64,000 nucleotides of DNA from Nitrosopumilaceae archaeon (GCA_965214835.1 CBDCCK010000002.1:1376001-1440000), one strand, 5' to 3'. Positions 2,807 to 29,320 are shown, counted from the stretch's first letter. Notes: a model not told the origin generated them from the letters alone. Translations and numbers: made by a program.

Positions 2807-3889
2807 ATGAGCGAATCTGAGGCAGGCTCGGTAAATTACAGTTTTGATGCCATTCGCGGAGTCCAGGCCAATCGCGTATACTATGTAGCAGTGTGCCCGA
2901 TGAAGACAATCCCGAAACTATTCATATTCAATGAACATGAGATTCCTGCAAAGATACGGGCCCAAAGGACGCTGCGAGAATCTAGGATTCCAGCCCTCAA
3001 GGACTATATTCTGAGCAATCCAGACGAGTACATCTTTTCATCGCTAACGGCATCAGTTGACGGAAACATGAAGTTCATTCCTGCACAGCATCTGGGTCCT
3101 GACGGCAAGATGGGCAAACTGCTCATTGACATGGAGTCGCGACTGCTCATAAACGACGGCCAGCACAGGCGCAAGGCAATAGAGGAGGCACTCAAAGAAA
3201 GGCCCGAGCTTGGAGGCGAGTCGATATCGGTGGTGTTCTTTGAGGACTCGGGGCTAAAACGCTCCCAGCAGATGTTTGCAGACCTGAACAAGAACGCAGT
3301 AAAGCCATCAAAATCACTTAACATTTTGTACGATAATCGTGATAAATATTCCCAGTTCGTTGTGGAAATGGCAGAGAGCCTGGAGATATTCCGAGACAGG
3401 GTTGAGCTTGAAAAAACCACCATAGGAAAACATGCCAAGGAGGTCTTTACACTTGGAGGGATATCCGATGCCACCAGGAAGCTCCTTGGCAAGGAATCAG
3501 TACGACGTCCCAGCAAGGAGCAAAAGGAGACAATCCTGGAATTTTGGAAGACTGTATCTGAGAATCTTCCAGAGTGGCAAATGCTGATCAAGGGCGACAT
3601 ATCCCCGGACGAGCTGAGGGCCAACTATGTCAACGCACACACGAACTGCATGAACTCGCTTGGAATGGCAGGAAAGGAGATAATCAAGCAGTATCCGGAC
3701 AGCTGGAAAAGAAGGCTCCGACCCCTGTCAAAAATCGACTGGTCACGCACAAACCCCATGTGGGACGGCAACCTCATACAAGGAAAAAAGATGGTTCGTA
3801 CGACCATCGGGATCGCGCTGGGAGCATGCGCCATACTTAGGGAATGCGGAGCTAAGATACCAAAGGCACTGGGGCAGTATGAGAAATGA
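2807..3889 (+). CDS. dndB: DNA sulfur modification protein DndB (DGQHR domain)
   Basis: RAQRTL, INDGQHRRKAI and QQMFADLN motifs; first gene of the dnd operon. Confidence 0.93.
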   Translation: MSESEAGSVNYSFDAIRGVQANRVYYVAVCPMKTIPKLFIFNEHEIPAKIRAQRTLRESRIPALKDYILSNPDEYIFSSLTASVDGNMKFIPAQHLGPDGKMGKLLIDMESRLLINDGQHRRKAIEEALKERPELGGESISVVFFEDSGLKRSQQMFADLNKNAVKPSKSLNILYDNRDKYSQFVVEMAESLEIFRDRVELEKTTIGKHAKEVFTLGGISDATRKLLGKESVRRPSKEQKETILEFWKTVSENLPEWQMLIKGDISPDELRANYVNAHTNCMNSLGMAGKEIIKQYPDSWKRRLRPLSKIDWSRTNPMWDGNLIQGKKMVRTTIGIALGACAILRECGAKIPKALGQYEK

Positions 3890-5310
3890 CTTCCGTGTTT
3901 GACTCAAAACCACTTGAGAAGATATACGAGGAGATTCGCACTGTATACCTCAACGATTCCCGCCCGTGGGTTTTGGGATTCAGTGGGGGAAAGGACTCGA
4001 CCTGCATGGTGCAGCTTGTCTGGGGGGCTCTATCCGCACTACCTGCAGAAAAACTGGATAAAAAGATCTATGTCGTATCCTCTGATACCCTAGTAGAGTC
4101 GCCACAGATCGTAGAGCGCATAACCACGTCGCTGGACAAGATGGAAAAGGCCGCAAAAAAGTCATCCATTCCGATATCGACCAACCTCCTGAGACCCCCC
4201 ATTACCGACACGTTCTGGGTCAGGATTCTCGGCCTCGGATACCCAGCGCCCACCTCAATGTTTAGGTGGTGTACCGACATGCTCAAGATTGCAAACGCCG
4301 ACCGCTTTATCAAAAACAAGGTATCCGAGTACGGCGAGGTCATAGTGCTGCTGGGAACCCGCAAAAGCGAGAGCTCTACCCGGCAGCAGAGCATGAACCT
4401 GCTGGAGATTGAAAACAGCGTTTTGAGCCACCACAAGAAATTTGCCCAGACGTACGTGTATACCCCCCTGGTGGACTTTGAGACCGACGACGTCTGGAAC
4501 TATCTGCTGCAAAACAGGAATCCATGGGGGGACAACAACAGGGATCTTCTGGCCCTGTACCAGGACGCCAACGCCTCAGAGTGCCCCCTCGTAGTGGATA
4601 CCAGCACGCCGTCGTGCGGCAGCGGCAGGTTTGGCTGCTGGACTTGCACCGTGGTGGACAAGCAAAAGTCGCTTGACAGCATGATTGAGAACGGTCAGGA
4701 ATGGATGGAGCCACTAGCCGAGCTGCGCCACGAGCTAAAGCTTACACAGAATCCCGAGACATGGCCCAAGGTACGCCAGATAACGCGCAGAAACGGCCGG
4801 GTGGATCTGAAAAACGACGGATCCGACTATACGCCGGGCCCATACACGCTTGACTTTAGAAAGGAGTATCTACAAAAGCTGCTCAAGGGCCAGGTCAAGA
4901 TACAGAAGCATGATCCTGACATGGTCCTGATTTCCGAAGAGGAGATACACGAGATACAGCGCATCTGGAGGATGGAAAACGGCGACTGGCAGAACACGGC
5001 ATACGGGATTTACCATGATATAACGGGAATCCAGCTGGAATCCGTCACTGACGACACGGGGGGATTTGGCCACGACGAGCAGGCACTGCTTGAGCAGGTC
5101 TGCACCAAGCACAAGGTCCCGTACAAGATCGTAAGCAGCCTGCTAAATGCCGAGGTAGAGCTGCAGACGGGCTCGACGCACTCCAAGATATTTGATAGAA
5201 TCAAAAAGGAGCTTGCAAAGGAGTGGAGGGAAGACATCGACGAGATAAGGGCAGAGCTGTTCGAGCACAGGGATGCGGAGGCAAGGGTGAGGCCAAATGC
5301 GTTTAACTAG
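3886..5310 (+). CDS. dndC: DNA phosphorothioation sulfurtransferase DndC (PAPS reductase family)
   Basis: PW..GFSGGKDST PP-loop, FRWCT, ECPLVVD..TPSCG..RFGCWTCTVV; ATGA overlap with dndB. Confidence 0.96.
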   Translation: MTSVFDSKPLEKIYEEIRTVYLNDSRPWVLGFSGGKDSTCMVQLVWGALSALPAEKLDKKIYVVSSDTLVESPQIVERITTSLDKMEKAAKKSSIPISTNLLRPPITDTFWVRILGLGYPAPTSMFRWCTDMLKIANADRFIKNKVSEYGEVIVLLGTRKSESSTRQQSMNLLEIENSVLSHHKKFAQTYVYTPLVDFETDDVWNYLLQNRNPWGDNNRDLLALYQDANASECPLVVDTSTPSCGSGRFGCWTCTVVDKQKSLDSMIENGQEWMEPLAELRHELKLTQNPETWPKVRQITRRNGRVDLKNDGSDYTPGPYTLDFRKEYLQKLLKGQVKIQKHDPDMVLISEEEIHEIQRIWRMENGDWQNTAYGIYHDITGIQLESVTDDTGGFGHDEQALLEQVCTKHKVPYKIVSSLLNAEVELQTGSTHSKIFDRIKKELAKEWREDIDEIRAELFEHRDAEARVRPNAFN

Positions 5311-7321
5311 GCTGATACTCGATGACGTTGGCGCCTACGGGGGGCACAACGAGTTCGAGTTTCCTACCACGTCTGACAGGCCCATTGTCCTGTATGGCGG
5401 GACCAACGGCGCCGGCAAGTCCACCCTCTTTGAGGCGATCCCCCTGTGCCTGTACGGACAGAGCAGCATGGATGAAAAGATGACAAAAAAACAGTATAAC
5501 CAGAAGATCAGACGGCTCTTTCACAGACACAAGCACAAAAAGACCCAGGCCGGGGAGGCCTCCGTATCGCTGGAGTTCGAATATGCGCAGAATGGAAGGA
5601 TCCTCCAGTACAAGATAACCCGAAACTGGCAGAACAATGACGGCCGTATTGACGAGTTTCTGGCCCTGTACAAGCAGTCTGATGCAGGCAAGGGATATGT
5701 CAGGGTGGATGCCGTGGGCGACTCCCAGATCCAGATGATGATAAACCAGATGATCCCCAGGGCGGTGGCAGGCATGTTCTTCTTTGACGGGGAAAGAATC
5801 AAGGACATTGCAGAGGAAGGCGACGAGCACCTTTACATAAAATCATCCTTTGACAGCCTGCTGGGACTTGACATATCCGACCGGCTCCGGGATGACATCG
5901 GCACGCACATACTGCGAAACTCGGGCGAGGAGGACAAGGAAGTACTTGCAAGGATCGAGGAGATGAACAGGGAGAAGGACGAGGCCGAAAGAAGGCTGGA
6001 GGAGATGCAACAAAAGCGCACATTTTTGAGCGACGATATCTCCAGCAAGAAAAAGGAACTAGATGGAAAAGAGGAGAAGTTCTTCAGGGCGGGCGGCAGC
6101 CGTGCAAAAGACCGGGAAAGGCTGGTAGACGAGAGAGATGAGATTTCCAAGTCCCTAAATTTTGTGGAATCCCAGATAAGAGACATGATCAAAAAAGACC
6201 TGCCGCTTGCAATAGTGCCAGATCAGCTAAGGCAGGTCAGGGAAAAGATCCAAGAGGACGAGGACAGCATCAAATCCAACCTTTCAGGCGATACGGTGAG
6301 GGCAGCCTATGACCACATGATAGGAGAGTTTGAGGCGCATCTGGACATGGACGACCCGGAGACCAAAAGGGCGCTGGTAAAGAAGCTCCGGGACATTGCA
6401 GATGCAAGGACAAGCTTGCTGTCTGACAAGAGACGCCTCACCTTTGACTTTTCACTGTCTGAGATGGCAGCGATGAGGCAAAGGATTGACAGGATACTGG
6501 ATCAGGATCACGAACGCTGGTCGGCACATCATGAGAGTCACAAGCACTATGCAGACCGGCTAGACAGGATATCTGCGCAGCTGGATGTTGCCCCACAGCA
6601 AGACGAGGTGGGCCCCCTGTATTCGAGTATAAAGGAGATCGCGCTGGAGATGGGGGAGATGGAGCAGGAATGCCATACGCTGGAGATGCTAGAGGTGCAG
6701 GAAAAATCCAAAATCGTCCTGCTAAACAGCAAGATACGAAAGCACCTTGCGGCAAAAAGATCCAACCATAGAAACCAGCTGGGACTGGAGTTGGCCCCGA
6801 GGATACAGGATGTCCTGGAGGAGTATTCTGCCAGGCTGCGGGCAAAGAAGATCACACTACTGGAATCCAACATACTGGAGGGGATCAAAAGATGCTTTCA
6901 CAAGTCAAGGCTCATCACTGCCGTCTCAATTGATCCCCAGACATACAGGATCACGCTATACAGCAGGGAGGACGAGATCTCCCGGGACACCCTGTCGCAG
7001 GGCGAGCTCCAGCTGTACGTGACTGCAATCGTGTGGGGACTGGCCAAGACGTCAGGACGCCCGCTGCCATTGATAGTGGACACGCCGCTTGCCAGGCTGG
7101 ATGTGGAGCACAGGGAGAACCTGATCCGCAACTTTTACCCAGAGGCATCACACCAGATAATCATATTTTCCACAAACACCGAGGTCGTGGACTCGTACTA
7201 TGAGATGATAAGGCCGCATGTCTCACAGGCCATGCTTATCCAGTATGATCCCGGGAGCGATACGAGCGTTGTAAGCGACGGATACTTTGGGAGCAAGGAG
7301 GGCAGCTATGTTGCAGTTTGA
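5297..7321 (+). CDS. dndD: DNA sulfur modification ATPase DndD (SMC/Rad50-like)
   Basis: Walker A GTNGAGKST, FFFDGE, coiled coil, LSQGE signature, IVDTPLARLD..HR. Confidence 0.95.
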   Translation: MRLTRLILDDVGAYGGHNEFEFPTTSDRPIVLYGGTNGAGKSTLFEAIPLCLYGQSSMDEKMTKKQYNQKIRRLFHRHKHKKTQAGEASVSLEFEYAQNGRILQYKITRNWQNNDGRIDEFLALYKQSDAGKGYVRVDAVGDSQIQMMINQMIPRAVAGMFFFDGERIKDIAEEGDEHLYIKSSFDSLLGLDISDRLRDDIGTHILRNSGEEDKEVLARIEEMNREKDEAERRLEEMQQKRTFLSDDISSKKKELDGKEEKFFRAGGSRAKDRERLVDERDEISKSLNFVESQIRDMIKKDLPLAIVPDQLRQVREKIQEDEDSIKSNLSGDTVRAAYDHMIGEFEAHLDMDDPETKRALVKKLRDIADARTSLLSDKRRLTFDFSLSEMAAMRQRIDRILDQDHERWSAHHESHKHYADRLDRISAQLDVAPQQDEVGPLYSSIKEIALEMGEMEQECHTLEMLEVQEKSKIVLLNSKIRKHLAAKRSNHRNQLGLELAPRIQDVLEEYSARLRAKKITLLESNILEGIKRCFHKSRLITAVSIDPQTYRITLYSREDEISRDTLSQGELQLYVTAIVWGLAKTSGRPLPLIVDTPLARLDVEHRENLIRNFYPEASHQIIIFSTNTEVVDSYYEMIRPHVSQAMLIQYDPGSDTSVVSDGYFGSKEGSYVAV

Positions 7322-7706
7322 GAACATCAAGGCAAGCTCACGCACGACCCATCTGTTTGGCATGCTCAGGTACAGCACTGCCGTGGAGCCTGAGGCCTGG
7401 GCCCGCCTGTCCCTGTGCCTGTCCATAAAGCAGAGGGGAATTCCCAATCCTGACGAATACAACAAAAAGGGCAGCGAGTTTGAACCGGCAAGGCTGTTTG
7501 CCGGAGATGAAAACATGTACCTTGCCCTCATGATCAACCGCCTAAACCAGGACGGGCTGGATCCGGATACGTATCTCGGAGAGATGACCAGGGCCCATCT
7601 CAACCGGGGGGCCATATCGCTAAAGCAGAGGATCGACGGCCTCTCTGACGTATACGGATTCGTCAGGGAGATGAATCCCGGCAAGTTCCGACTTGCGGAC
7701 GGATAA
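7308..7706 (+). CDS. dndE: DNA sulfur modification protein DndE
   Basis: ARLSLCLS...RAHLNRG pattern; size and position after dndD. Confidence 0.85.
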   Translation: MLQFENIKASSRTTHLFGMLRYSTAVEPEAWARLSLCLSIKQRGIPNPDEYNKKGSEFEPARLFAGDENMYLALMINRLNQDGLDPDTYLGEMTRAHLNRGAISLKQRIDGLSDVYGFVREMNPGKFRLADG

Positions 7707-7707
7707 A

Positions 7708-8886
7708 ATGCAGTCTTTCTCCGAGGCCAAGTCCGGTCAACCCGTCTATCTGGACTCGCATGCAACTACGCCGGTGGACCCGCGCGTCCTAGACGAGATG
7801 ATCCCGTATTTTACGCAGGTGTTTGGGAATGCATCAAGCCTGGATCACTCGTACGGCCATGACGCATCACAGATTGTCCAGGCATCTCGGGAGAAGATCG
7901 GCCGTGCAATTAACGCACACATGGATGAGATCATATTCACGTCAGGCGCCACGGAATCAGACAACCTTGCACTGTGCGGCGTCATGATAAAGAATGCGGA
8001 TCGCGGGAACCACCTGATCACGTGCGTTACAGAGCACAAGGCAGTCCTGGATACGGCGAGGCGTCTTGAAGCCGGAGGCATGGATGTGACATACCTGCCC
8101 GTTGACGAGTTTGGCATGGTTGATCCCAAGGCAGTAAATGACGCGATAACGGACAGGACAGTCCTGATTTCGGTGATGTTTGCAAACAATGAGGTTGGAA
8201 CGATTGCAGACATTGGCGAGATCGGCAAGATAGCGCACGACAATAACGTGCTGTTTCACACGGATGCGGCCCAGGCCGTCGGCCACATGGATATCGATGT
8301 GCAAAGACTCAACATTGATCTTATGTCGTTTTCCTCCCACAAGATTTACGGACCCAAGGGAGTTGGCGCACTCTATGCAAGGGGAGTCATGCCGCGCGTA
8401 AGGCTGGATTCGATAATGCACGGCGGTGGACAGGAGAGGGGCATCCGTTCCGGCACGCTAAACGTTCCCGGAATCGTGGGCTTTGCAAAGGCCCTGGAGA
8501 TCGCCAATAAAGAGATGGAGCAGGAAAACGACAGGTTCAGGAGCTGGACAAGTCAGATGAGGGACAGGTTTGCGGAGATTGGCGGGATTCAAAATGGGCA
8601 TCCCACGAATAGGCTGGCCCACAACCTCAATGTCAGGTTTGACGGAATCGATGGCAAGGCCATCATCAACTCTGTATCCAAGAAACTGGCCATCTCTGCA
8701 GGCTCTGCATGCACGACCCAGGCAGTGGAGCCCTCGCACGTCCTCTTGGCACTTGGATTAAGCGAGGAGCAGGCCCACGCCTCGATCCGAATCGGATGTG
8801 GACGGTTCAACACCCAGACTCAGATCGAGGAGGCCATCGATACGATTGATTCATCCGTACGTGCCCTTGCAAAGATTCGAGCCTGA
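7708..8886 (+). CDS. dndA: Cysteine desulfurase DndA (IscS-like)
   Basis: YLDSHATTP, SGATES, HTDAAQ, SSHKIYGPKG, SAGSAC; operonic with dndE. Confidence 0.9.
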   Translation: MQSFSEAKSGQPVYLDSHATTPVDPRVLDEMIPYFTQVFGNASSLDHSYGHDASQIVQASREKIGRAINAHMDEIIFTSGATESDNLALCGVMIKNADRGNHLITCVTEHKAVLDTARRLEAGGMDVTYLPVDEFGMVDPKAVNDAITDRTVLISVMFANNEVGTIADIGEIGKIAHDNNVLFHTDAAQAVGHMDIDVQRLNIDLMSFSSHKIYGPKGVGALYARGVMPRVRLDSIMHGGGQERGIRSGTLNVPGIVGFAKALEIANKEMEQENDRFRSWTSQMRDRFAEIGGIQNGHPTNRLAHNLNVRFDGIDGKAIINSVSKKLAISAGSACTTQAVEPSHVLLALGLSEEQAHASIRIGCGRFNTQTQIEEAIDTIDSSVRALAKIRA

Positions 8887-9664
8887 TATGAGAGTAAGTG
8901 ATATGGACAAGCGATATCTATACAGATTGACTGTGTGCTCTTTGGCCAAGCGGAACTGAACCTGCTTTTAGCTGTTCACAGTCACCATTCTTCATACTAA
9001 AAGATTATAAAAAAAGGCAGGCACCAATTGTAGGATGGCAACGGACAGCAGCAGATCCTTGTTCAGCAAGCAGATCAATGACATATGCGATCAGGTGGGG
9101 GTATCAAAACCGGACGCCTTTCCAAGATGGATATGCCAGAACATTCTTGGCATTGCTGATGATGAAAAGATTGACGAGGCAGTCTCAATTGGAGGTAAGA
9201 ACGATTACGGAATCGACATATTCCATGCAGAGGAAAGCGGCGACATTACAGAGCAGTACATATGCTGGGTTCAGGCAAAGTTCAGTGAAAACCTGGATCA
9301 TGTTGCCAGGCGGGAGGACATAGAATCGTTTGCAAGTACGCTTGGCCATTTGATGGATTGCCCCCATTCTGCCAATCTAACCTTCAAACAAAAGGCCGTT
9401 GAGTTTGCAAAAATGGTGAAAAAGTATCCCCACATGCGAAAAAAAATGATCTTCGCCGTTGCAGGACATCTAAACAGTCAAGCTCAGGAATTGCTTGGAA
9501 ATTCCAGGTGGAGAGAAGAAAAACTTGGAAATGAGCTGGATTCCAACATTGATCTTGAGATACTTGATTTGGATAAAATTCTCTCTCGTATGACGATTCC
9601 CCATACTCCGACAGTGACGATTAAGTTTGATGGCAATGTGATAGAGCGCATTGATGAGACAACT

Positions 9665-11199
9665 AGACTTTATGCGTAATCGACCGTGATTAAAAATTCC
9701 GTAGGCTTTTCCAAACGCAAATGCGCTGATCGGATCAAATTACCGCATGCATCTCGTGTCATGACGCACGTAAAAGCCAGTTGCGCCAAAAGAACGTGCG
9801 CAACCATGCAGCACGGCAATGTGCCCCGTTGACAAGTCAGAAAGAATGGCGGTCCGTACCGCCGTATGTCATGTGTCTGGCAGCAGATGCAGCTGCTGCA
9901 GCAGCTGGCCATAGTATTTTTTCCTTTTCAACATCGTCTTGAGGTTCTCAAGACCCGTGATTATCTGCATGAAATAATTGAGATCCTTGGCAGTTCCGCC
10001 AAACGGCATGGTAAGAATGCCATATCTTTTGAGCCGCCCTATGTGGTGCTCCACCCTGACGCGAACCCTGCTTATCTGCTTGCGGCGCCTCTTTTGCGTT
10101 GCAGTAAGATCCCCGTCCCTGGGCTTCTTTGGGGGCTGCCTGTGTATGGCGCCCGGAAGCATCTTTTGAATGCCCTCAAATCCCAGGTCGCTGTAAATCA
10201 CAAACGCCTCTTCCGGATCGTCTGCGTTTTTTGCATTCCTCATTGATCCGGTGTGCCTTCCAAAGTCCGGGCCGCCCCCTGCGTTCATCACGCCCTTGTC
10301 GTTGACGCTTCCGTCCACAGTCTTGCCGCAGTGCAGTATGAGGCCGTCCAGGTTCGAGGTAATTATCGTGTTGAACATGTGCCGCTTTTTTCTTCCCGAA
10401 TATCTGGTCTTTCTTGCGGTCCTGTCCCCGGGCCTGTCTACCGGAGTCAGGGTGCCGTCAATCAGGAGCGTCTTTTTTGGGATCAGCACCTCCTCCAGCT
10501 TGCCTGCCGGGGTCTTGCAGATGATGCTTGTTAGCTTTTCGGAGGCAGGCAGGAGCCGGCGCAGTAACACGGCACCGTACCGGAGGTACCTGGACATTGT
10601 GGACTGGTCGACGTCAAACGTTGCGGCCAGATGATGTTGCGTTGCCTTGGTCCTTATGCTCATGAGTACTGCAAGCAGCGCGTGCCTGATGTACAGCTTG
10701 CACCGGTTTCCGGCATCGCCGCCTCTTACGTCGTCCTCCCAGAACAGGGGTCTGTCCTCGTCGTCCATGACTTCTTCCGTAAAGCGCTCCAGTATGATCG
10801 TAAATGACTCCTTTGTGCATCCCGTGACGTTGCGAAGGCGCACCGGATCGCCGATTATGCCGTCTGCAACCTCGATTGCGTGCATCCGCAGAGGCGTCCC
10901 GCCGCGCACGACTCTTTTTGTCTTGTTTTCTTCGGACTGCCACAGTGAGTCCTCAAACGCAAGCTGCTTCCTCATACGCTCGTTTTGCTTGGACATCTGT
11001 TTGTTTTGCTTGGATACCTGCTCGTGTTGCTCGACTAGCATCTCGTGTTGCGCTTGTAACGCTTGAAATGCTTGGAGAGTCTTGTCATTTGAGCCCATAC
11101 AGTTAGGGAATCATACAGATCTTTAGGGTTGTTGGTGTGCAAATAATGATCTATTGTGTCGTATTTTTAGATCAGATGGGCCGATTACGCATAAAGTCT
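9665..11199 (-). mobile_element. IS5-family (ISL2/PIF-like) insertion sequence
   Basis: Perfect 18-bp terminal IR AGACTTTATGCGTAATCG; 3-bp TSD ACT at 9662-9664 and 11200-11202. Confidence 0.92.
9869..11098 (-). CDS. DDE transposase (DDE_Tnp_4-like with HTH)
   Basis: LLIDGT, YSGRKKRH, SDLGFEG and RVRVEHHIGRLK motifs. Confidence 0.92.
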   Translation of the reverse strand: MGSNDKTLQAFQALQAQHEMLVEQHEQVSKQNKQMSKQNERMRKQLAFEDSLWQSEENKTKRVVRGGTPLRMHAIEVADGIIGDPVRLRNVTGCTKESFTIILERFTEEVMDDEDRPLFWEDDVRGGDAGNRCKLYIRHALLAVLMSIRTKATQHHLAATFDVDQSTMSRYLRYGAVLLRRLLPASEKLTSIICKTPAGKLEEVLIPKKTLLIDGTLTPVDRPGDRTARKTRYSGRKKRHMFNTIITSNLDGLILHCGKTVDGSVNDKGVMNAGGGPDFGRHTGSMRNAKNADDPEEAFVIYSDLGFEGIQKMLPGAIHRQPPKKPRDGDLTATQKRRRKQISRVRVRVEHHIGRLKRYGILTMPFGGTAKDLNYFMQIITGLENLKTMLKRKKYYGQLLQQLHLLPDT

Positions 11200-12543: not shown

Positions 12544-12674
12544 CTGTAAACTTTTAGGCCTTTCAAGAATCCCACCTTGATCATGTTACATATCTTCTTG
12601 GACAGCACAGTAAGTATCCGGCTCGTTAGAGATTTTTAAGCTGATTTAATAGCTGGCAGTTGGACTTCTGACAT

Positions 12675-13541: not shown

Positions 13542-14642
13542 ACCATGTTGTTTGAAGAGCTGGACATAAAATCATTTTATGATTCTAGAAAGACGGATGT
13601 GTATAATGAATTCTTTAATGCAGTCCTTCCACATTCGAAATACTATAGGAGATTCGGCGGTGTTTTTTCTGCAAAAAGGTTTGCATTAATGGCCGAAGGA
13701 TTACAGGATTTTATCAAGGAAAACAACGGAACTATGGAGCTTGTCATAATACCAATGTTTTCTGAGGAGGACAGGCATGCAATCATGCGCGGTATTGATG
13801 TTCACGACATCATTGCAAAAAACTGGATCAATGATCTTTCAAAAATCAAAGAGAAGTTTCTGGAGGATCATAAAAAAGCATTATCTTGGATGATTGCGAA
13901 TGAATTTCTTACCATAAAATTGATTCTGCCAGAACATGATGATGGAACTATATTTTCCGAGTCGGAAATAAAAGATCAGGCAATATTTAGAAAAGAGATT
14001 GGTATATTGTATAACAAAGACGATGACAGGCCAATCTCTTTTCATGGAACCATAGATAGGGAAGACTCCCAGGTGGGTGAGCTTTACTCAATAGACGTAG
14101 CTAGACACTGGGTTGAAAGTGAGAACGAACAAATTGATTCAGATCATGAGGAATTCACAAACTTTTGGAGCAATGAATCACACCAGCTTGGCTCGATAAA
14201 GTACAAAGTTGTGCCACTATCAAAAAAACTAAACTCGTATTTCAGGCAGATCTCCCCTAAAACCAAGTCCGATATACCTCAACTGAGAAAGCTTCCTGTT
14301 CTAAGAGACTATCAAGAGCAGGCAGCAAAGACGTGGATGAATAGCTCTGGAAAAGGCATTCTTGAGATGGCAACTGGGACGGGCAAGACATTTACTGCAA
14401 TCGAATGTATTAACAAGATAGCAGCCAAAGACGATAAAGCTCTTGTTGTAATCACGGTTCCCTATAGAAATCTTGCAGATCAATGGAAAAAGGAACTATC
14501 CAAATGGGGCATAACATCAACCATTCTTGAATCTAGATCATGGAAGCAGATACTACGTGACGAGGTTTCATACATCAACAAATGATCTGGACCCCGTATT
14601 TTCGAACCACTTTTTGGGCGTTTTTGCGTAGCTCTGGCATCA

Positions 14643-15479
14643 TCATTTGCCTGCCTCCCTTTGGTGCCGTACGACGAACTCCATCGGAGTGAGATATCCA
14701 AGTGAGGAGTGTATTCTGTCATGGTTATAGTCCCTAAATGCCTCCCTTATGACGTCTGAGGCGTCCTGGAAGGAGTCAAATTCATGGGGCCACAGGTATT
14801 CCCTCTTGATGCTTCCGTGAAACGACTCTATGTGGCCGTTTTGTTCTGGCGTCCTGTATGCTATGAGCTCGTGTCTTATTCCCAGCTGTTTCAGGGACTC
14901 CCTGAACATGCGCGACGTATACTGAGAACCGTTGTCTGTCCGCAGGGTCAGCATGCTGCAGTCCGGATCTGCTGCCGATACCGCATCGAGTACGGCCTGA
15001 ACCGCATTCTCCTTTTGCGCCGTGGTATCAAAGGAGTATGCAAGCCACCTGCGCGAAAAGGCATCAAGTACGTTGAAACAGTAGCACCAGCCGTCCCCGC
15101 CGCAGTCCACGTATGTGATGTCTGCCTGCCACAGCCGGTTGGGGGCATCTGGCCTTGTAAGCTTGCGCGAGGCCCGTATTATGTCGTTTTTGGTCTTTTT
15201 GGGCTCGATCCAGCCTATCTGGCGGTAGATTCGCTGTATCTTTTTGCGGTTTACGCGCACGCCAGTCTCGCGCAATATCTGGTTTGCCATCCTCCGGGTT
15301 CCGTACGTCGGCCTTTTCTTGCCTATGGTACGTATGATTGAGACCGTCCCGGGGTCGGCTTTTCTGGCTCGTCTGTCGGCGTCCTTCCTGGCGTAATACC
15401 AGGTGCCCTTTGAGACGCCGCAGTATTCCAGGGCTGTATTGAGGCTCATCTTCTGGTGGCAGATCTGTACGGCATTCAT
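14643..15479 (-). CDS. IS3 transposase OrfB (integrase core)
   Basis: WQADITY, TDNGSQY, PEQNGHIESFH, YN..RIHSSLGY motifs. Confidence 0.93.
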   Translation of the reverse strand: MNAVQICHQKMSLNTALEYCGVSKGTWYYARKDADRRARKADPGTVSIIRTIGKKRPTYGTRRMANQILRETGVRVNRKKIQRIYRQIGWIEPKKTKNDIIRASRKLTRPDAPNRLWQADITYVDCGGDGWCYCFNVLDAFSRRWLAYSFDTTAQKENAVQAVLDAVSAADPDCSMLTLRTDNGSQYTSRMFRESLKQLGIRHELIAYRTPEQNGHIESFHGSIKREYLWPHEFDSFQDASDVIREAFRDYNHDRIHSSLGYLTPMEFVVRHQREAGK

Positions 15480-15763
15480 CCTTTGCTCAGCTCCATTGTT
15501 TTTTTTAAAGCGTCACAGGCCACTGCATACTCGCCTATGATGCGTTTGAGATTCTGGTTCTCCTTTTGCAGGGCAGCCGCTGCCTTGTCATTCCGGCCCA
15601 GGATGGATGCCTTGCCGCCCTCGACGAACCTGTCCATCCACCTGCCAAACGTGGTGGGCGCGATGTTGTGCTTGCGGCACAGCTCGGCAGTGCTGATGCT
15701 GGTCTTGATGGACTCCATCACTATGTCTGTTTTTTCGGCCAATGTGAACTTTTGTTTTTTCAT
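15476..15763 (-). CDS. IS3 transposase OrfA (HTH)
   Basis: KFT.AEK..IV...AELCRKHNI...W; ATGA overlap with orfB and an A8 run near the end. Confidence 0.9.
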   Translation of the reverse strand: MKKQKFTLAEKTDIVMESIKTSISTAELCRKHNIAPTTFGRWMDRFVEGGKASILGRNDKAAAALQKENQNLKRIIGEYAVACDALKKTMELSKG

Positions 15764-16954
15764 GCCCCGTATGCCCTCCTGTCACATACAAATTCTACGC
15801 ATTTGGGTGGTTCGAATTTTATGGGGTCCTCACCACAAATTTGAAGGTGAAAAAATATCTGTGGCTATTGTTTCACATGATTTATTTTCAAATGATTACT
15901 TTGTCAAACAGATAAAACGTTGTAAGATTACTACAATGCTGGTTGCAGATGAAGCACACCACTTGGGCACCGCCATCGCGCGTAATGGGCTTCTAGAGGA
16001 CTATGTCTACAGGTTAGCGCTTTCGGCCACAATTGAGAGATATTTTGATCAGGACGGAACGGATTTTCTGCGTGAATACTTTAAGGGATCGACTGGAGTG
16101 TCAAGTGTTGCGTCTTACCCACTTGAAAAAGCAATAAAGGAAGACAAGTTGTGTGGATACAACTACTATCCGTTTTTCACAGATTTGACAGAAGATGAAT
16201 ACCATGAATACAGGTCTATCACACATAAAGCAGCTAGGTTGTTAAGTTCAACCGATTTTGAAAAACGGAAGAAGGGCGAGGGGCTCATCAAGATGCGTGC
16301 AAAAATCATAAGAGATGCAACCAACAAGCCCGCAGTTCTTGAGAAAATATTAGCGCAGATGCCTAAAATTAAACATCTACTGATATTCTGTTCTGAGAAA
16401 CAGTACGATACTGTCGAGAAAATCCTGAGCAATTCATCAAAACACAGGAAGGATAACAGAACAACCATGTTCAGGAAAATTACTTATGACAATCCAAAAC
16501 TAAAAAAAGACAGAGTGAAAATTCTTGATGGTTTTGCTAATGAAGACTGGGATGTATTGCTATCTAACCGCGTGTTAGATGAAGGGATGGACATTCCACA
16601 AGCGCGAAGCTGTATTGTCATGGCATCTACTGGAAACCCAACCCAATTTATTCAAAGGCGTGGCCGCGTGTTACGCCCATACAGCGAGCCATACTTGGAT
16701 GGAAGCAGAAAAACACATGCAGACATTTATGACATATTGATCAAACCGCAAATTGACAAGTTTGCCGATCGGGATTCAATCCGGCTTGAGATCAGCATGA
16801 TTCGGAATCAGTTCTCAAGAATAAAAAACATGAGTGAGCTTGCCCTGAATAAGCCACACTGTATGAACGAGATTAAAAAATTTACCTACGGGCTGCCGGC
16901 AGAGTGTTTTTCAGCTACTAATAAATAACTACAACCATTCACGTGTGACACAGC

Positions 16955-17185
16955 ATGGCAAAGATTAATCCGCACATTCTAAATACATTAAAAGAATACC
17001 TCGATGAACATCCTGACATTCCAAGCGAAATGGGTGAGTTGGTTAAAAGGCTGTTAGAAATTGAAAGTACTGTTAGAAGTTATGCAGAAACAGGCGGTAT
17101 TGACAAACTATATGATCAACTGCTAGAAAAGTTTGTAGACAATCAAGATTTTGTAGTATGGTGTAAAAATTATGTCAAGCGATAA
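16955..17185 (+). CDS. pbeB: PbeB-like small helical protein
   Basis: 76 aa, lies between the helicase and the SMC-like ATPase and overlaps the next gene. Confidence 0.6.
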   Translation: MAKINPHILNTLKEYLDEHPDIPSEMGELVKRLLEIESTVRSYAETGGIDKLYDQLLEKFVDNQDFVVWCKNYVKR

Positions 17186-19271
17186 AGAACAACTATTCAT
17201 AAAAGAAATACAAATTTCCAACTGTGGGAGATATTACGGTGACGGACACACGATTTTATTTTCCAACTCGCCGGGCAAAAACATCAACATAATAATTGGT
17301 TGGAGCGGCAGAGGAAAATCCACAATTTTTGATCTAATTTATTGGTGTTTTTATGGTGAATTTAGAAACAGCAAAGAAGAGCAGAGCACAACAGATTATG
17401 GGCTTGTTAATGACGACGCTTTGAGTAATCTTCCAAAAGGAAAAAGCGTTACAGCTTCTGTCGTGATCTCATTGCATGACAAGCGTGGTGAAAAATATCG
17501 TCTTACCAGAGAAGTCAAAGCAGTCTGCAACAGAGAATCTGGATCCACCAAATTCGAACAGCTAAACAACTCTCGTGTGTCTGACGGAATTGATTTTGAT
17601 ACATCTGCCAAGCTAGTGTTCAAAAATGATCATGGAGATATGCAAATAGAGGATAATCCAAGCACTATTGAAAATAAGATCAGTCAATATTTCCCAAAAC
17701 ACCTGTCCGACTTCTTCCTGTTCGATGGAGAAGATCTGATTAAATTTAGAACCCAAGGACATGCATCTGAATTGATAAAAAATGGAATTACGAAGATATC
17801 AGGTCTTGGTTTGGTAAGCTATCTGATTAAAAACTCAAGCAAAACTGCAGATAACATTCAAAGATCTTATGGCGGCAAAAGCGCACAAGCTGCACCGCAT
17901 CAGGCAGAAGTCGATCGATTGAAAGGAGAAATTAATGACATTAACGAAAAAATAAGAATGAATACTAAGGAGCTTGACAAGCAAACTGTCTTCAAAGACA
18001 AAATCATTGCGTCTATTGCTAAAAGCGAATCTAGCCAGAAATTAGCAAAGGAGAAAAAAAAGAATGAGGCTTCCATAAAACATACAAAGCAAAATATCCG
18101 AGATATAAATCAGGAATTCAAGGAATTTCTCTTTGAGAATATTCCATATGTTCTCCTAAGGGACACACTAAAAAATGCTGAAGATATCTTTGCCCAACTG
18201 GAACGTGAGGATAAGATACCACCATCAATTTCTAGCAGTGCGATTGATAAAATCCTAAACTCTGATCCATTACGATGCGTATGTGGGAGAGAATTTGAGA
18301 AAAAAGACGCAGAGGGTGAACCATGGAGAATATTAAACCAAATGAAAGATACGATCATAGCGGATGACTTGTCACAAGCAATTTCGTTGGGGCGCAACTT
18401 GCTAAGCCAGATAATGGACAATACAGAAAACCAAAAACTAAAAACTAAATTTAGCAAGCATATAGAAAAAAGGAGGCAGGTGAGAGACGAGCTAAACCTA
18501 CTAAAGGAAAAGGATGAAAACTTGGAGCTAAAGATCAAAGAAACTGCAATCATGGAGGGCGGTGACGACCTCATAACTAGAAAGAAGGAATATACTGACA
18601 AAATAGACAAACTGCATGCAGAAATTGTGTTAGATAAAGATAAGCGCGATAATTTAATTGAAGATTTAGATGTTAGCGAACAAAAGCTCCAAAATGCCAT
18701 GGAAAAAGCAGGCAAGTATGATAAGGAGTTAAACAAGATTTCTCTAGGTAAGGCAGTAAGTAAATTTGCCCAACAATTAGAAAAAAGAATTGAAGAGATT
18801 TTGAGAGAAAAGACAGAGCAAGCAACTAGCAAATACTTCCTTGAAAGCGCCCCAGAAAAAGAGACGTTTGATCATGTGGAGATATCACCTAATTATGACA
18901 TTACGGTTAAAGATGAAAAAAACAAAATCCCCTTGCTCTCAAAGGGTCAAGCACACGTACTTGGATTATCATATGTCGCAGGAATCAGAGAAGTTACAAG
19001 CACTAGCACATTTTTAGTTATTGATTCACCACTTCATAACATTTCAGGCTATGCAAGAAATGACATAGCTATGGCATATTCACAGTACCTACCTGGCGTT
19101 CAAATAATTCTGTTAGTTACTGACACAGAATACCTACAAGGTGATTCCAAGGGGGCAGAACCAGTACAAAAAATCTTGCGGAACAAAGGCAATATCGGGC
19201 AAGAGTATGAGATTCAAAAAATCACCACAGAAAATGGAATAGATAGCAGGAAAGTAACGGTGCAAGGATAA
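17172..19271 (+). CDS. pbeC: PbeC-like SMC/DndD-type ATPase with zinc hook
   Basis: GWSGRGKST, FLFDGE, CVCG hook, LSKGQ, VIDSPL. Confidence 0.8.
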   Translation: MSSDKEQLFIKEIQISNCGRYYGDGHTILFSNSPGKNINIIIGWSGRGKSTIFDLIYWCFYGEFRNSKEEQSTTDYGLVNDDALSNLPKGKSVTASVVISLHDKRGEKYRLTREVKAVCNRESGSTKFEQLNNSRVSDGIDFDTSAKLVFKNDHGDMQIEDNPSTIENKISQYFPKHLSDFFLFDGEDLIKFRTQGHASELIKNGITKISGLGLVSYLIKNSSKTADNIQRSYGGKSAQAAPHQAEVDRLKGEINDINEKIRMNTKELDKQTVFKDKIIASIAKSESSQKLAKEKKKNEASIKHTKQNIRDINQEFKEFLFENIPYVLLRDTLKNAEDIFAQLEREDKIPPSISSSAIDKILNSDPLRCVCGREFEKKDAEGEPWRILNQMKDTIIADDLSQAISLGRNLLSQIMDNTENQKLKTKFSKHIEKRRQVRDELNLLKEKDENLELKIKETAIMEGGDDLITRKKEYTDKIDKLHAEIVLDKDKRDNLIEDLDVSEQKLQNAMEKAGKYDKELNKISLGKAVSKFAQQLEKRIEEILREKTEQATSKYFLESAPEKETFDHVEISPNYDITVKDEKNKIPLLSKGQAHVLGLSYVAGIREVTSTSTFLVIDSPLHNISGYARNDIAMAYSQYLPGVQIILLVTDTEYLQGDSKGAEPVQKILRNKGNIGQEYEIQKITTENGIDSRKVTVQG

Positions 19272-19783
19272 TGTCAGAAGCAACATCACGGAAAAAAATC
19301 GACTTGTCTGCAAGGAAGATTTCTGCAGGGTGGCCCAAGGTTGGATATGACGGCAACGAGAACAACAAGGCCCTTCAGTTCTATGCAAGAAAATCCGGAA
19401 AGACAAAAGAGAGGAGATCCATGTTTGTCGGCAAGAAACTAGCTGACATCTTTATCTATGCCATGGCGTTAGGCAAACATGCAGGACTGAAAGAAGATTA
19501 TGGAAAACAGGGCGACAGACGAGATTCTATAGACATGGAATACATTGCAATTCATCCCGAATACCTGTGGATGATGTTATCTGTAGCATTAGAGGAGGCG
19601 AAGAATAACGGAGAAAATCCATTGGAAATATTTGATGATCCAAGAAATAAGATAATAGGTGTGTGCGAACAGTATGCAAACTACGGTATCAAGTTGCTAA
19701 TATCTATGGATGAGGGTGCAAGCACAGCAGATCCATACAAGGACTACGAGGAAAAGCTCGAAGAATTACTAGAGAATAATTGA
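19271..19783 (+). CDS. pbeD: PbeD-like (DndE-related) protein
   Basis: DIFIYAMALG...CEQYANYGI pattern; position after the ATPase. Confidence 0.65.
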   Translation: MSEATSRKKIDLSARKISAGWPKVGYDGNENNKALQFYARKSGKTKERRSMFVGKKLADIFIYAMALGKHAGLKEDYGKQGDRRDSIDMEYIAIHPEYLWMMLSVALEEAKNNGENPLEIFDDPRNKIIGVCEQYANYGIKLLISMDEGASTADPYKDYEEKLEELLENN

Positions 19784-21927
19784 CTGTAACATGTCCTATC
19801 TGTGACGATTCCTTTGAGTCTCAATCCAAGCTCATGTCCCACTTTGAGATACATAAATCCAAGTCAGTTTTGCAGAGAAAACCCGTCGAGACAGACATGG
19901 CCACAAAAAAGCAGAGTTGCAAAAAAATCAACATCCGGAAAATCTTTGGTGAAGAAATCTTCGAGAGATTAATTTCCGATAAAATCAAAAATGTAGAAAA
20001 CACCGAAGAGATGGTTAACAGGAGACAGTTTGTAGAACAGATAAAAAAGATGGTGTCAAAGCACCCTTTTATCTATGCGCCGTATTTTATTGAGGATGTA
20101 TTTGTTGGGCAAAATGCAGCATTCATACTAAAAAAATATGCAATTCCAAATACTGTAGACTGGCAAAACATAATGCAAAAAACGCTAGGATTGAAGGGCA
20201 AAAGGTACCGCCAGCAGGCGTACAGTAATTCGCTTGAAATGAACATGAAAATACCCACATGGAAGAACAAATATGAGACGTTCAGGGATAATTGCACATT
20301 TTTTGCTGGTGAACTTCTTGAGCTTCTTTTTTACAATCTTTTCTGTTCATCAATTCTTGTTATTATGATGGATCATACAAAAACTGGAGCAGAGCATGGT
20401 GATATAATACTGCGAGCTAGAGAAATCCTTGGAGATAACTTTGACATTTACAAAGTTGTTGACGAGCCACTAAAGAAGAGAATAATTGAAAGATATTTTG
20501 GAAGTGATTTTGAACGTATTGGTGAGGAGATTTTATCCGAGATGATTCGCGAGGGAATTCTCCAAAGGAAGCGAGGTAACTGGAAACTGCTGATCGGCAC
20601 GGTTTCAATAGACAAAATAAAAGATGAGATAGTCAACGAGCTTAGGTTCAATCCAGACATCCACAATGAGACACACATCAGGGATAATGTGACGGCTAGG
20701 CATCCTAGCATACGCCTAATCTTGAATTTGGATGTGTGGAAGACGGCATTGTTTGAACTCGAGGATGAAAAATTGATCCGTCTAGAATCTAGGACAACCA
20801 GCAAAAGCTCGGCACTTGTCTTTCTCAATAAAGATTATCTACGAATCCAACAGAAGCTGAGTGGTCTTGACAATCACCTGCCAGAGTTTCATGGTCGAAA
20901 GATCTCTCCACAGGTGTTTATAGACGAGCTACTCGAGCTGGAACGAGGTGACTTTGGCGACAGAGACGATCAAGTAACCCGAATTGCAGGCCTAGTACTT
21001 GCCGAATCGATAAAGATGCGCGCACCACACGAATCCTTACCCGAGTTTGACTTTTCTACCGACATAACAAACTACAATTTCAGGCCCGAGCAGCTCCAAG
21101 TAATGAAAAGGATGAATTTTGTAATGTGGACCAACATATTTCATTGCAAAGTAATGCTGGAAGAAAAGCTTACGGTAAAAAAATACAAGCGTCTCAAACA
21201 TAATCTACCATCAGAGGATCAAGGAATCGTAGTAACGTTTGTAGAGCCCACGTTAGGTGTAAAGCAAATTCTTGAACAGGACAAATCAATTCAAATAATT
21301 GACAAGGATGATCTAAAATCATGGGCATCAATAACGCCTACAATTCCTGCCAGGAAGGGATCGGTTGTCAGGTTACATTACGATCCAGTATCAGACATGG
21401 AAAGAAGAGTAGCCAAAGTAAACATAATAGACTATGAAAGCGGATTGGCATCAGTCACAGTTTTGCCAGAGGTTAAAGAAGTCACAGTTATGGCAAGGGC
21501 GCTTGAGGAAATCGAAGTGTATAGCAACCAAGTTGATGACTTTGCTGTAATTACAGATAATTATTTTGAATTTCTGACCTGGCTTTCTCAACACTCCGAG
21601 AAACGCGATTTTATCGAGGCAATTTTTGACGGGAATGTGAAGGATCTTAGAAAGATCACGCTAGATAAGAAAAACAACATCTGGGAGATCGAGCTAGCTA
21701 ACAACACGGTAACGATCGAGATGGGAGAAAACAACGCAAACAAAATAGCCAAATGTAGTTGTTATCATGGACTTGATTCCGGCATCCCCTATACGTTTTG
21801 TAAGCATCTGATTACCGCACTGGACAAAATAGGACGGGAAAGGAGTTACTTTGACGAAACATGGAATAGTGAGAACAGTTTCAAGAACGCATTAACAAAG
21901 ATCCTCGCAAAAAATTTTCAGTCTTAG
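19780..21927 (+). CDS. Multidomain protein: C2H2 zinc finger, Mrr-like region and SWIM finger
   Basis: CPIC-x12-H-x3-H; GIVVT...IQIIDKDDL; CSC-x11-CKH; TTG start overlaps the pbeD stop. Confidence 0.65.
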   Translation: MTVTCPICDDSFESQSKLMSHFEIHKSKSVLQRKPVETDMATKKQSCKKINIRKIFGEEIFERLISDKIKNVENTEEMVNRRQFVEQIKKMVSKHPFIYAPYFIEDVFVGQNAAFILKKYAIPNTVDWQNIMQKTLGLKGKRYRQQAYSNSLEMNMKIPTWKNKYETFRDNCTFFAGELLELLFYNLFCSSILVIMMDHTKTGAEHGDIILRAREILGDNFDIYKVVDEPLKKRIIERYFGSDFERIGEEILSEMIREGILQRKRGNWKLLIGTVSIDKIKDEIVNELRFNPDIHNETHIRDNVTARHPSIRLILNLDVWKTALFELEDEKLIRLESRTTSKSSALVFLNKDYLRIQQKLSGLDNHLPEFHGRKISPQVFIDELLELERGDFGDRDDQVTRIAGLVLAESIKMRAPHESLPEFDFSTDITNYNFRPEQLQVMKRMNFVMWTNIFHCKVMLEEKLTVKKYKRLKHNLPSEDQGIVVTFVEPTLGVKQILEQDKSIQIIDKDDLKSWASITPTIPARKGSVVRLHYDPVSDMERRVAKVNIIDYESGLASVTVLPEVKEVTVMARALEEIEVYSNQVDDFAVITDNYFEFLTWLSQHSEKRDFIEAIFDGNVKDLRKITLDKKNNIWEIELANNTVTIEMGENNANKIAKCSCYHGLDSGIPYTFCKHLITALDKIGRERSYFDETWNSENSFKNALTKILAKNFQS

Positions 21928-29270: not shown

Positions 29271-29320
29271 GACTGCATAGGGTCTATAATTTATATGACA
29301 GCGCAAGAGTTCTGGTTACG

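Follow-up and report, generated by a model that had tools for sequence, protein, structure and literature searches.

Does a DNA phosphorothioation locus that carries additional nuclease-like genes act as one expanded defence system, or have genes of different standing come together in it? The question is raised by a 64,000-nt stretch of DNA from a Nitrosopumilaceae archaeon (GCA_965214835.1 CBDCCK010000002.1:1376001-1440000; hereafter the window, to which all positions refer), where a first-pass annotation made from the sequence alone had described positions 2807 to 21927 as a supercluster of 12 co-oriented genes: dndBCDEA, an AIPR gene, an HNH gene, pbeABCD and a gene for a zinc-finger (ZnF)/SWIM protein. 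The locus is quite probably a Dnd-Pbe phosphorothioate (PT) defence locus in the form typical of ammonia-oxidising archaea of the Nitrosopumilaceae, with intact dnd genes, a pbeA broken by an insertion sequence (IS) and a modification left orphaned. Two extra predicted nucleases, the HNH protein and the 715-aa ZnF/SWIM protein, are conserved in this thaumarchaeal Dnd-Pbe variant.

Plus-strand open reading frames (ORFs) of the region were scanned against Pfam, PADLOC and NCBIfam. The gene families first named are borne out (DndB, C, D, E, A, AIPR, HNH, PbeA and PbeC), and the borders hold, 2807 being the start of dndB and 21927 the stop of the zinc-finger gene. The dnd matches, together with those of PADLOC to PbeA and PbeC, identify a dnd plus pbe system with the following parts:

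2807..3889, plus strand: dndB, 360 aa, intact (Pfam DndB 1.9e-118, 395.9 bits; PADLOC 1.8e-136; TIGR03233 414.9 against a cut-off of 328; DGQHR at residue 117)
3886..5310, plus strand: dndC, 474 aa, intact (PADLOC 1.1e-181; TIGR03183 511.7 bits against 290.4; PP-loop SGGKDS at residue 33)
5297..7321, plus strand: dndD, 674 aa, intact (PADLOC 1.4e-159; TIGR03185 442.4 bits against 245.85; Walker A GTNGAGKS at residue 35)
7287..7706, plus strand: dndE, 139 aa (Pfam 45.4 bits against 25; PADLOC 1.2e-33; TIGR03184 41.9 bits, below its cut-off of 71.85)
7693..8886, plus strand: dndA, IscS-type cysteine desulfurase, 397 aa (PADLOC 8.6e-160; Aminotran_5 283.5 bits; GSAC at residue 337)
9035..9665, plus strand: AIPR/AbiU-like gene, 5' part, residues 1-210 (PADLOC AbiU positions 5-214 of 537, E 6.5e-4; 44% identity to residues 2-203 of a paralogue)
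9666..11198, minus strand: IS5-family insertion sequence, 1533 bp (transposase ORF 9869-11098; DDE_Tnp_4, HTH_Tnp_4; IS5 family NF033581)
11201..12429, plus strand: AIPR/AbiU-like gene, 3' part (Pfam AIPR 115.2 bits; PADLOC AbiU positions 218-491 of 537; 46% identity to residues 203-612 of the paralogue)
12675..13541, plus strand: PUA-like (EVE/YTH-type) plus HNH endonuclease, 288 aa, first gene of the pbe operon (model pLDDT 90.5; pbeA starts 3 nt downstream)
13545..14582, plus strand: pbeA 5' part, 346 aa, N-terminal PLD-like region and helicase motif I, GTGKT at 278 (PADLOC PbeA positions 2-345 of 672, 1.7e-71; TIGR04095 positions 9-102 of 451)
14583..15835, minus strand: IS3-family insertion sequence, 1253 bp (orfB 14643-15479, orfA 15476-15763; rve, rve_3, HTH_21; transpos_IS3 226.6 bits)
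15840..16928, plus strand: pbeA 3' part, 362 aa, DEAH at residue 37, QRRGR motif, Helicase_C (PADLOC PbeA positions 350-670 of 672, 1.5e-88; TIGR04095 positions 108-445 of 451)
16955..17185, plus strand: pbeB candidate, 76 aa, below ordinary ORF cut-offs (overlaps the pbeC start by 14 nt)
17172..19271, plus strand: pbeC, CxC-type ABC ATPase, 699 aa (PADLOC PbeC 2.4e-70; AAA_23; Walker A at residue 43; CVC at 369-371)
19271..19783, plus strand: pbeD by position and size, 170 aa (found after pbeC in relatives as ORFs of 151-167 aa, 29-62% tblastn identity)
19780..21927, plus strand: C2H2 zinc finger, helical domain, two winged helices, predicted restriction-endonuclease-like domain, beta domain and SWIM zinc finger, 715 aa (start overlaps the pbeD stop by 4 nt; model pLDDT 88.5, pTM 0.80)

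The count of 12 genes stands, and many junctions overlap as had been noted (3886/3889, 5297/5310, 7287/7321, 7693/7706, 17172/17185, 19271/19271 and 19780/19783). Strict co-orientation does not: three minus-strand transposase ORFs (9869-11098, 14643-15479 and 15476-15763) belong to two insertion sequences, and two of the 12 genes are broken. Because these elements interrupt AIPR and pbeA, four plus-strand ORFs (9035-9679, 11137-12429, 13545-14585 and 15456-16928) are the halves of two genes. The locus is laid out as an intact dndB-C-D-E-A module (2807-8886) and a six-gene operon (12675-21927) of PUA-like-HNH, pbeA, pbeB, pbeC, pbeD and the 715-aa gene.

The host genome (3.22 Mb in two contigs, with a guanine-plus-cytosine content (GC) of 0.526) encodes an archaeal AmoA, found at 384 bits in a search that was positive in 0 of 14 control genomes. 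This supports the thaumarchaeal host proposed at first sight, an ammonia-oxidising archaeon, as do all 15 of the loci related through the zinc-finger protein, which come from Nitrososphaerota, Nitrosopumilaceae, Nitrosopumilus, Cenarchaeum or Nitrosopelagicus. The occurrence of PT genes in archaea of this kind has been published before (PMC6790972, PMC6459918).

The modification module brings together a PP-loop sulfurtransferase, an ABC ATPase, DndE, DndB and a cysteine desulfurase, all from intact genes. DndB, DndC and DndD exceed their NCBIfam equivalog cut-offs; DndE exceeds the Pfam cut-off only, and DndA falls just under its equivalog cut-off (TIGR03235, 409.9 bits against 480). The dndC gene is the sole DndC match in the genome. 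The presence of dndB is as annotated, and the reported absence of DndF, DndG and DndH agrees with PADLOC, which returned no match of these types among 20 ORFs scanned. Neither dnd_assoc_1 nor dnd_assoc_2 gave a match in the genome, though no control genome gave one either. It is established in other systems that DndABCDE writes PT; with its genes and motifs intact, dndBCDEA should likewise write PT marks on host DNA.

Directly 5' of dndB lies a 103-aa ORF (2427-2738) whose C-terminal ~55 residues are conserved at 37-64% identity. A homologue of this part adjoins dndB or lies elsewhere in the dnd-pbe locus in at least five relatives (L004 at 13265-13447, L050, L053, L055 and L070), with checked ORFs of ~55-60 aa. 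The ORF matches no family in Pfam, NCBIfam or a further family scan and may be a small dnd-linked gene. A Schlafen AlbA_2 protein is encoded further 5' of dndB (1232-2404).

The restriction half of the locus is in a different state. The IS3-family element in pbeA has TG...CA ends and is flanked by a CAAA duplication at 14579-14582 and 15836-15839; its borders are fixed by BLAST against the genome, where eight copies, this one included, are 100% identical and share the same end bases. An element with eight identical copies is, to judge from sequence, actively spreading. Once the element and one CAAA are removed, 13545-14582 fuses in frame with 15840-16928 into 708 codons. All eight related loci compared encode pbeA as one uninterrupted ORF of 686-706 aa, which continues exactly at the point where the 5' half in the window ends. 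Homology to PbeA is therefore present, including to TIGR04095, the family of the "DNA phosphorothioation system restriction enzyme", but not as one polypeptide that joins a PLD/HKD-like N-domain to a superfamily 2 (SF2) helicase: the insertion parts motif I (GTGKT, before the element) from DEAH (after it). In the N-terminal half, the motif H109-x-K/R111 is kept in 9 of 9 sequences and the PLD-like family NF042964 matches at 3.5e-9. The HSK at residues 30-32 was considered as the HKD motif and rejected, as it is not conserved in relatives.

In three public runs (one study), contigs cross both pbeA/IS junctions, reaching 30 nt into each end of the element. No contig in four public runs joins pbeA across it, as an IS-free allele would, although contigs drop rare variants. 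The genome contains no other PbeA-like gene of comparable score; the top match is C2:1391849-1392883, and both matches read as this locus. Because pbeA is split by an insertion sequence, the restriction half is most likely crippled and PT modification most likely orphaned, so that only the marking half probably still works. The first-pass annotation, which described an expanded system, missed both insertion sequences.

The genes 3' of the element retain the features expected of Pbe components. PbeC is a DndD-like ABC ATPase with a CxC motif. The small PbeB between pbeA and pbeC and the small PbeD 3' of pbeC are represented by ORFs of 76 and 170 aa that are conserved in relatives and match no family in Pfam, PADLOC or NCBIfam; at the position of pbeB, tblastn finds 48-54% identity in L003, L004, L005 and L058 and 25-29% in L011, L016 and L059. 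PbeA has been described as an HKD nuclease joined to an SF2 helicase, PbeB as a rapidly evolving small protein, PbeC as a CxC ABC ATPase and PbeD as a DndE cognate (PMC10853773). The closest described counterpart is DndCDEA-PbeABCD of Haloterrigena jeotgali A29 (Xiong et al. 2019, PMC6459918), where a PT module is followed in the same order by pbeA (PLD-like plus ResIII/helicase), small pbeB, pbeC (DndD-like ATPase) and small pbeD. The window differs in having dndB, the PUA-like-HNH gene before pbeA, the 715-aa gene after pbeD and a pbeA split by an insertion sequence, and its PbeB and PbeD are somewhat longer than those of H. jeotgali A29 (66 and 152 aa; PMC6459918). In that haloarchaeon PbeABCD is reported to exert a PT-dependent block of viral DNA replication, with all four genes needed for full protection (PMC6459918). 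A metagenome scan with the PbeC protein returned one remote locus at 20% identity, which was not used.

Which of the accessory genes belong to this system can be judged from their recurrence. Species-representative genomes were scanned with the ZnF protein as anchor, giving 15 loci, in which all window proteins were then searched by tblastn. Eight of the 15 (L003, L004, L005, L007, L008, L010, L011 and L016) carry HNH-pbeA-(pbeB)-pbeC-pbeD together with ZnF. The gene order is the same in seven of these eight, the ZnF gene of L010 being inverted and relocated, and dnd genes are visible in seven, L003 starting at a contig end. Junctions are tight as well: pbeD and ZnF share 1-4 nt in L003, L004 and the window, and only 1-3 nt separate HNH from pbeA in L004 and the window. 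A sample anchored on PbeC instead of ZnF (400 other genomes of the same family, E<=1e-40) yielded pbeC in 20 genomes, with HNH adjacent in 14 and ZnF in 12. When a ZnF profile was run against 400 genomes of the family in a second draw, whose listed handles coincide with the first, 13 genomes had both ZnF and pbeC, 7 had ZnF only, 7 pbeC only and 373 neither. Across the phylum, TIGR04095 (400 genomes, E<=1e-20) hit mostly generic SF2 helicases; among the eight best loci, which have frames of 698-755 aa, HNH and ZnF are both present in 3 of 3 from the close clade, and ZnF in 0 of 5 distant ones. The HNH and SWIM proteins are, by these comparisons, recurrent partners of the pbe clade of the window. 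The first-pass annotation was to fall if the accessory genes never occurred with dnd/pbe elsewhere; HNH and ZnF/SWIM do so occur, which passes that test, and AIPR does not.

One genome of the same genus as the window (G068) has two dnd-pbe loci: L053 and L052, one of the HNH/ZnF type and the other divergent and without ZnF, where only a weak HNH-like match (24% identity) is seen. In L005/L051, pbeD and ZnF have no continuous ORF though tblastn matches span both. They are probably frameshifted, and if so the restriction half has decayed here too.

The HNH protein consists of two domains. Sequence comparison relates its C-terminal part to TagI (3.5e-12) and to E. coli McrA, and in the structural model residues 178-288 superpose on the TagI HNH with a Z score of 16.0 (root-mean-square deviation (rmsd) 1.5, 109 residues aligned, 30% identity). 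Residues 1-151 adopt a PUA-like fold, closest to the Thermococcus McrB N-domain with 5-methylcytosine DNA (Z 11.3, rmsd 3.4, 146 aligned), followed by PH1033 (Z 9.9) and YTH domains (Z 8-9). Foldseek finds TagI at 4e-9 and VcaM4I at 7.9e-7. VcaM4I matches with Z 8.5 over 216 residues but with an rmsd of 14.0, and because of this deviation the two domains are not placed alike in the two proteins. The zinc and catalytic residues C197, C200, H216, H217, N231, C236, H239 and H240 are invariant in 72 sequences. At the level of fold, the protein combines an N-terminal modified-base reader with a C-terminal beta-beta-alpha-Me HNH that carries its zinc ligands, and it is predicted to be a type IV, modified-base-dependent nuclease.

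This layout of modified-base reader and C-terminal HNH is shared with TagI (SRA-HNH, PDB 6ghs) and VcaM4I (6yex), whose reader is presumably an EVE domain. The reader in the window is nearest the archaeal McrB N-domain and PH1033, not SRA, and its gene sits in a pbe operon. A comparison with the ScoMcrA-type PT-dependent HNH enzymes (NF045808) gives a shared HNH core and a genomic link to PT systems, but the window protein is without the SBD-type winged helix, and ScoMcrA (5zmm) matches its HNH region only (Z 4.9). Its identification as an SBD-type PT reader was rejected, since the N-domain is PUA-like and NF045808 scores 36.3 bits against 180, in the HNH part only. HNH nucleases commonly lie just 3' of Dnd modification genes (PMC10853773); those described there are of the form wHTH(SBD)+SAD(SRA)+HNH, which differs from the PUA-like N-domain of the EVE/YTH kind seen in the window.

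The 715-aa protein is harder to place. It matches no PDB chain by sequence and, in Pfam, only a sub-threshold C2H2. Its family is small (159 cluster representatives at E<=1e-3 in a profile search of 1.84 billion representatives), with ~100 full-length homologues of ~740 aa, nearly all unnamed, and the family loci found are confined to Nitrososphaerota. The SWIM signature CxC...CxH (C659, C661, C674 and H676) is invariant in 80 of 80 sequences; the Pfam SWIM model gives no match to the window protein, and the homologue P0095 carries a precomputed PF04434. At the N-terminus, C5, C8, H21 and H25 fit the family consensus CPxC...H...H. Because the alignment conserves this finger, and the 697-aa version in the database begins past its first residues, the evidence argues for the upstream TTG as the right start. 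Conservation is also strong in a central block, GDFDDxDDQVTRIAGL. D396 does not vary in the alignment, and at least 90% of its 80 sequences conserve D391, D394, D397, E418, D424, H455 and K457.

In the structural model, two winged helices (residues 178-275, Z 10-11.7, and 276-360, Z 8.7) precede a region that resembles restriction endonucleases. Residues 376-554 match MspJI (Z 7.1, rmsd 3.6, 129 aligned), AspBHI (Z 7.0) and RPB5 (Z 7.3), and residues 388-520 match AF1548 (Z 7.9). Foldseek returns FokI at 3.2e-4 and MspJI at a probability of 0.98, with probabilities of 0.96-0.98 but TM values of 0.12-0.19, and a language-model look-up of residues 366-585 finds only Mrr_cat-type clusters (0.77, rated a lead only). 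A nuclease-like domain is therefore likely, predicted from the model and not secure. The likeness to FokI, MspJI, AspBHI and Mrr-type restriction enzymes is one of fold only, with DNA-binding winged helices ahead of a predicted restriction-endonuclease-like domain; the window protein differs by its additional C2H2 and SWIM fingers and is without a sequence-level match to them. This architecture suggests a DNA-reading nuclease or adaptor. A complex prediction of the protein with PbeD scored 0.00, which is evidence neither way.

Outside pbe, the ZnF family is found in a second setting (L012-L015 and L017), beside two ~400-aa proteins with no Pfam or PADLOC match, an SNF2/ZorD-like helicase of ~650 aa, a NOV_C protein of ~320 aa with a PD-T4-1/TmtA-like C-terminus, and an N6/N4 DNA methylase. 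The whole set is present in L015 and L017 and part of it in L012, L013 and L014. The ZnF protein with this SNF2/NOV_C/methylase module may constitute an undescribed defence system, and the association of one family with two modules that each combine a DNA mark and an SF2 helicase fits a helicase-coupled reader or nuclease role, though it shows too that the protein is not specific to Pbe. L015 also carries an EcoO109I-like enzyme. Metallo-beta-lactamase/RMMBL and "HNH_repeat" proteins (one with Mrr_N) adjoin ZnF genes with or without pbe in L003, L004, L007, L008, L009, L012, L013 and L055; such neighbours may be additional partners or may indicate a common hot spot of integration.

The AIPR gene presents the opposite picture. 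The IS5-family element within it is bounded by a 22-nt inverted repeat (9664-9685 / 11179-11200, TA included) and a TA target-site duplication (9664-9665 and 11199-11200), across one copy of which the frame of 9035-9665 runs on into 11201-12429; other copies of the element in the genome are at most 94% identical. The AIPR domain is thus present, but not in one intact protein. By tblastn AIPR has 0 matches in every related dnd/pbe locus examined, and the dndA-HNH gap that holds it here measures only ~60-160 bp in six relatives; because of both observations, AIPR reads as a local insertion and not as a component of the system. Its likeness to AbiU/AIPR abortive-infection proteins extends over both halves, which Pfam AIPR and PADLOC AbiU cover between them, and it differs in being interrupted and not conserved with dnd/pbe. 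The Lamassu genes that follow the locus also have no match in any related dnd/pbe locus examined (weak LmuB rows fall on pbeC), and AIPR and Lamassu are both, as the comparison indicates, local additions. Contigs of runs X1, X2, X4 and X5 join the ends of the IS5-family element (9685->11181) at high depth with 39-40 other letters between them. The joint looks like a miniature derivative of the element, resembling a miniature inverted-repeat transposable element (MITE), elsewhere in the genome or community; as an IS-free AIPR allele it was rejected, because those letters come from a miniature IS relative.

It is consequently very improbable that the 12 genes form the single supercluster first described, with AIPR, HNH and SWIM proteins all effectors of one expanded PT system. 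The genes do share a strand and a 19-kb interval and are all of defence-type families, but AIPR is missing from the related loci, is broken by an insertion sequence, has its own intact paralogue (615 aa, 40777-42624) 29 kb away in a different context, and stands 148 bp from dndA and 245 bp from HNH where the other genes overlap or abut. A less far-fetched rival, still unlikely, is that HNH and ZnF/SWIM are self-contained defence genes that share the island slot of pbe without working with PbeABCD. TagI and VcaM4I, the closest solved relatives of the HNH protein, are stand-alone single-protein restriction enzymes, and by analogy with such type IV enzymes HNH may be an independent passenger; ZnF occurs without pbeC in 7 of 20 ZnF-positive genomes and beside the other helicase/methylase module in five loci, and in L010 and L055 the ZnF gene, or pbeCD-ZnF, runs in a different orientation. 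Against it, loci that span 0.30-0.60 GC and 25-70% protein identity preserve the gene order as well as close or overlapping junctions, and pbeC is found in 13 of 20 ZnF-positive genomes versus 7 of 380 ZnF-negative ones. Hitch-hiking seldom gives such a pattern, as the local passengers AIPR and Lamassu, not conserved at all, illustrate. At the other extreme, the 715-aa protein might be an obligate fifth subunit of the thaumarchaeal Pbe machine, a mark-reading nuclease or adaptor that docks on SF2-helicase motors and is re-used by the SNF2/NOV_C methylation system. This proposal is tentative and on balance doubtful; if true, the protein would supply the step of DNA cutting or self/non-self reading never found for PbeABCD.

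The locus could also still work as PT restriction, through residual pbeBCD (with or without ZnF), excision of the element in part of the population or read-out transcription from it. In the haloarchaeal system, pbeBCD without pbeA is reported to keep low-level resistance (PMC6459918), and pbeB, pbeC, pbeD, ZnF and HNH are here intact ORFs with intact motifs, which makes some residual pbeBCD activity possible by analogy. Working restriction is nevertheless improbable given the separation of helicase motifs I and II, the want of a comparable second PbeA-like gene and the failure of any contig to bridge the site. The interpretation preferred here, a Dnd-Pbe locus with orphaned modification and two conserved additional nucleases, has several points to set against it, besides the residual resistance just cited, the possible independence of HNH and the occurrence of ZnF apart from pbeC and beside another module. 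The recurrence counts come from related genomes of one family, which are not independent samples, and no statistic is attached to them. Neither HNH nor ZnF is found at 6 of the 20 pbeC loci, whose PbeA is only 31-36% identical to that of the window and one of which (L049) is a 6.7-kb contig ending at pbeC, and at L060 and L070 HNH is present but the ~6.4-6.6 kb covered there contain no ZnF. The scores of the nuclease-like domain are middling (Z 7.0-7.9; Foldseek E 3e-4 with TM 0.16; the look-up lead of 0.77). A profile comparison of PbeD with DndE (hhalign, 8 against 6 sequences, shallow alignments) gave a probability of 0.3%, which is not significant. Contigs could miss a minority IS-free pbeA allele, and that the insertion abolishes PbeA function we infer from the disrupted gene.

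The two halves of the locus also differ in composition. As first noticed, the pbe half is the more AT-rich, with a GC of 0.342-0.417 for the HNH-to-SWIM genes (0.401 from AIPR-3' to SWIM without the IS3-family element) against 0.495-0.557 for the dnd genes; the genome mean in 2-kb windows is 0.526, and only 2.2% of these lie at or below 0.40. In eight related loci the HNH-to-SWIM block is 2-11 GC points under the dnd genes whatever the GC of the genome, and the contrast is therefore to some extent a property of the genes themselves. The 13-point gap in the window is the largest seen, and is consistent with the pbe block having been acquired later or separately. The contrast thus lends weak support to the modular assembly deduced from it. 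The relative order and orientation of the two modules vary between genomes (L004, L010 and L055), which shows dnd and pbe to be separable units. The co-evolution of DndCD with PbeAC is reported to be weak (rho 0.107; PMC6459918).

Taken together, these features are compatible with the following course of events. The intact dndBCDEA would mark host DNA with PT, and PbeABCD, in the haloarchaeon a module that blocks the replication of non-PT viral DNA, would form the restriction half. The 715-aa protein would act in concert with the Pbe helicase/ATPase, reading DNA or cutting it, and the PUA-like-HNH enzyme would cut modified-base DNA, adding cover against viruses with modified bases. An unrelated AbiU-like AIPR gene, itself an insertion between dndA and HNH, has been split by the IS5-family element. 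Insertion of the IS3-family element between helicase motifs I and II of pbeA would leave PT modification without effective Pbe restriction, while HNH, 5' of the element, and the genes 3' of it could still be expressed.

Much of this is known already: Dnd, Pbe, type IV HNH enzymes, AIPR, IS elements and PT genes in these archaea. Conflict systems anchored on a CxC ABC-ATPase and DndE (PMC10853773) share with the window the CxC ATPase, an HKD-like plus SF2 helicase protein and a small protein beside DndD-DndE. The terms SWIM, C2H2, zinc, Thaumarchaeota and Nitroso- are absent from the main text of that paper, whose supplementary tables may list such loci. Subject to what those supplements hold, the six-gene form of the operon, with a PUA-like-HNH head and a winged helix-turn-helix (wHTH)/restriction-endonuclease-like/SWIM tail, and the 715-aa family were not found in the literature searched. 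On how PbeABCD stops viruses studies differ, one reporting no DNA cleavage and another arguing that nucleases are required (PMC6459918 and PMC10853773). Two extra predicted nucleases in the pbe operon of globally important nitrifying archaea are concrete candidates for testing the Pbe mechanism. The locus also makes the decay of a defence system visible, an insertion sequence with eight identical copies having cut the restriction helicase and left the modification genes whole. "Orphan" PT modification systems are common in surveys, and loss of the restriction half to an insertion sequence may be one of their origins.

The dnd-pbe locus is part of a defence island of roughly 45-50 kb that ends before tRNA-synthetase genes (51558-55738). 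Because the window contains no tRNA gene, there is no tRNA-linked island border in it. A promoter and terminator scan with a bacterial-type model, inapplicable to archaea, gave 33 against 25.6 +/- 5.9 and 17 against 12.0 +/- 3.5 in shuffles, which is not above expectation. The other genes of the island include:

22258-25972, minus strand: complete Lamassu-type system, directly after the zinc-finger gene (LmuB 2.3e-101; LmuC 5.2e-16; LmuA with Cap4 nuclease domain 5.4e-22; GC 0.368)
33325-34521, minus strand: second class-V cysteine desulfurase
35516-38833, minus strand: UvrD/RecD-like helicase, 1105 aa (PADLOC candidate PDC-S68, 1.1e-218)
38889-40172: further DDE transposase
40777-42624: the intact AIPR/AbiU paralogue, 615 aa

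Between the two copies of a direct repeat of ~2.2 kb (26265-28487 and 42977-45302, 96-99% identical) lie ~14.5 kb with other genes of defence type. Both copies contain a gene for a short PbeC/DndD-like ATPase of 450 aa that matches only the head parts, and the two proteins are 98% identical. Bil-like ubiquitin-type genes occupy 29156-31986 and encode DUF2604, JAB (BilC 8.7e-14) and ThiF/E1 (BilD 1.1e-12) proteins. Further along the window lie genes for a stand-alone EVE-domain protein (56117-56599), a Fic fragment (57917-58414) and a NucS_C-domain protein (58757-59989).

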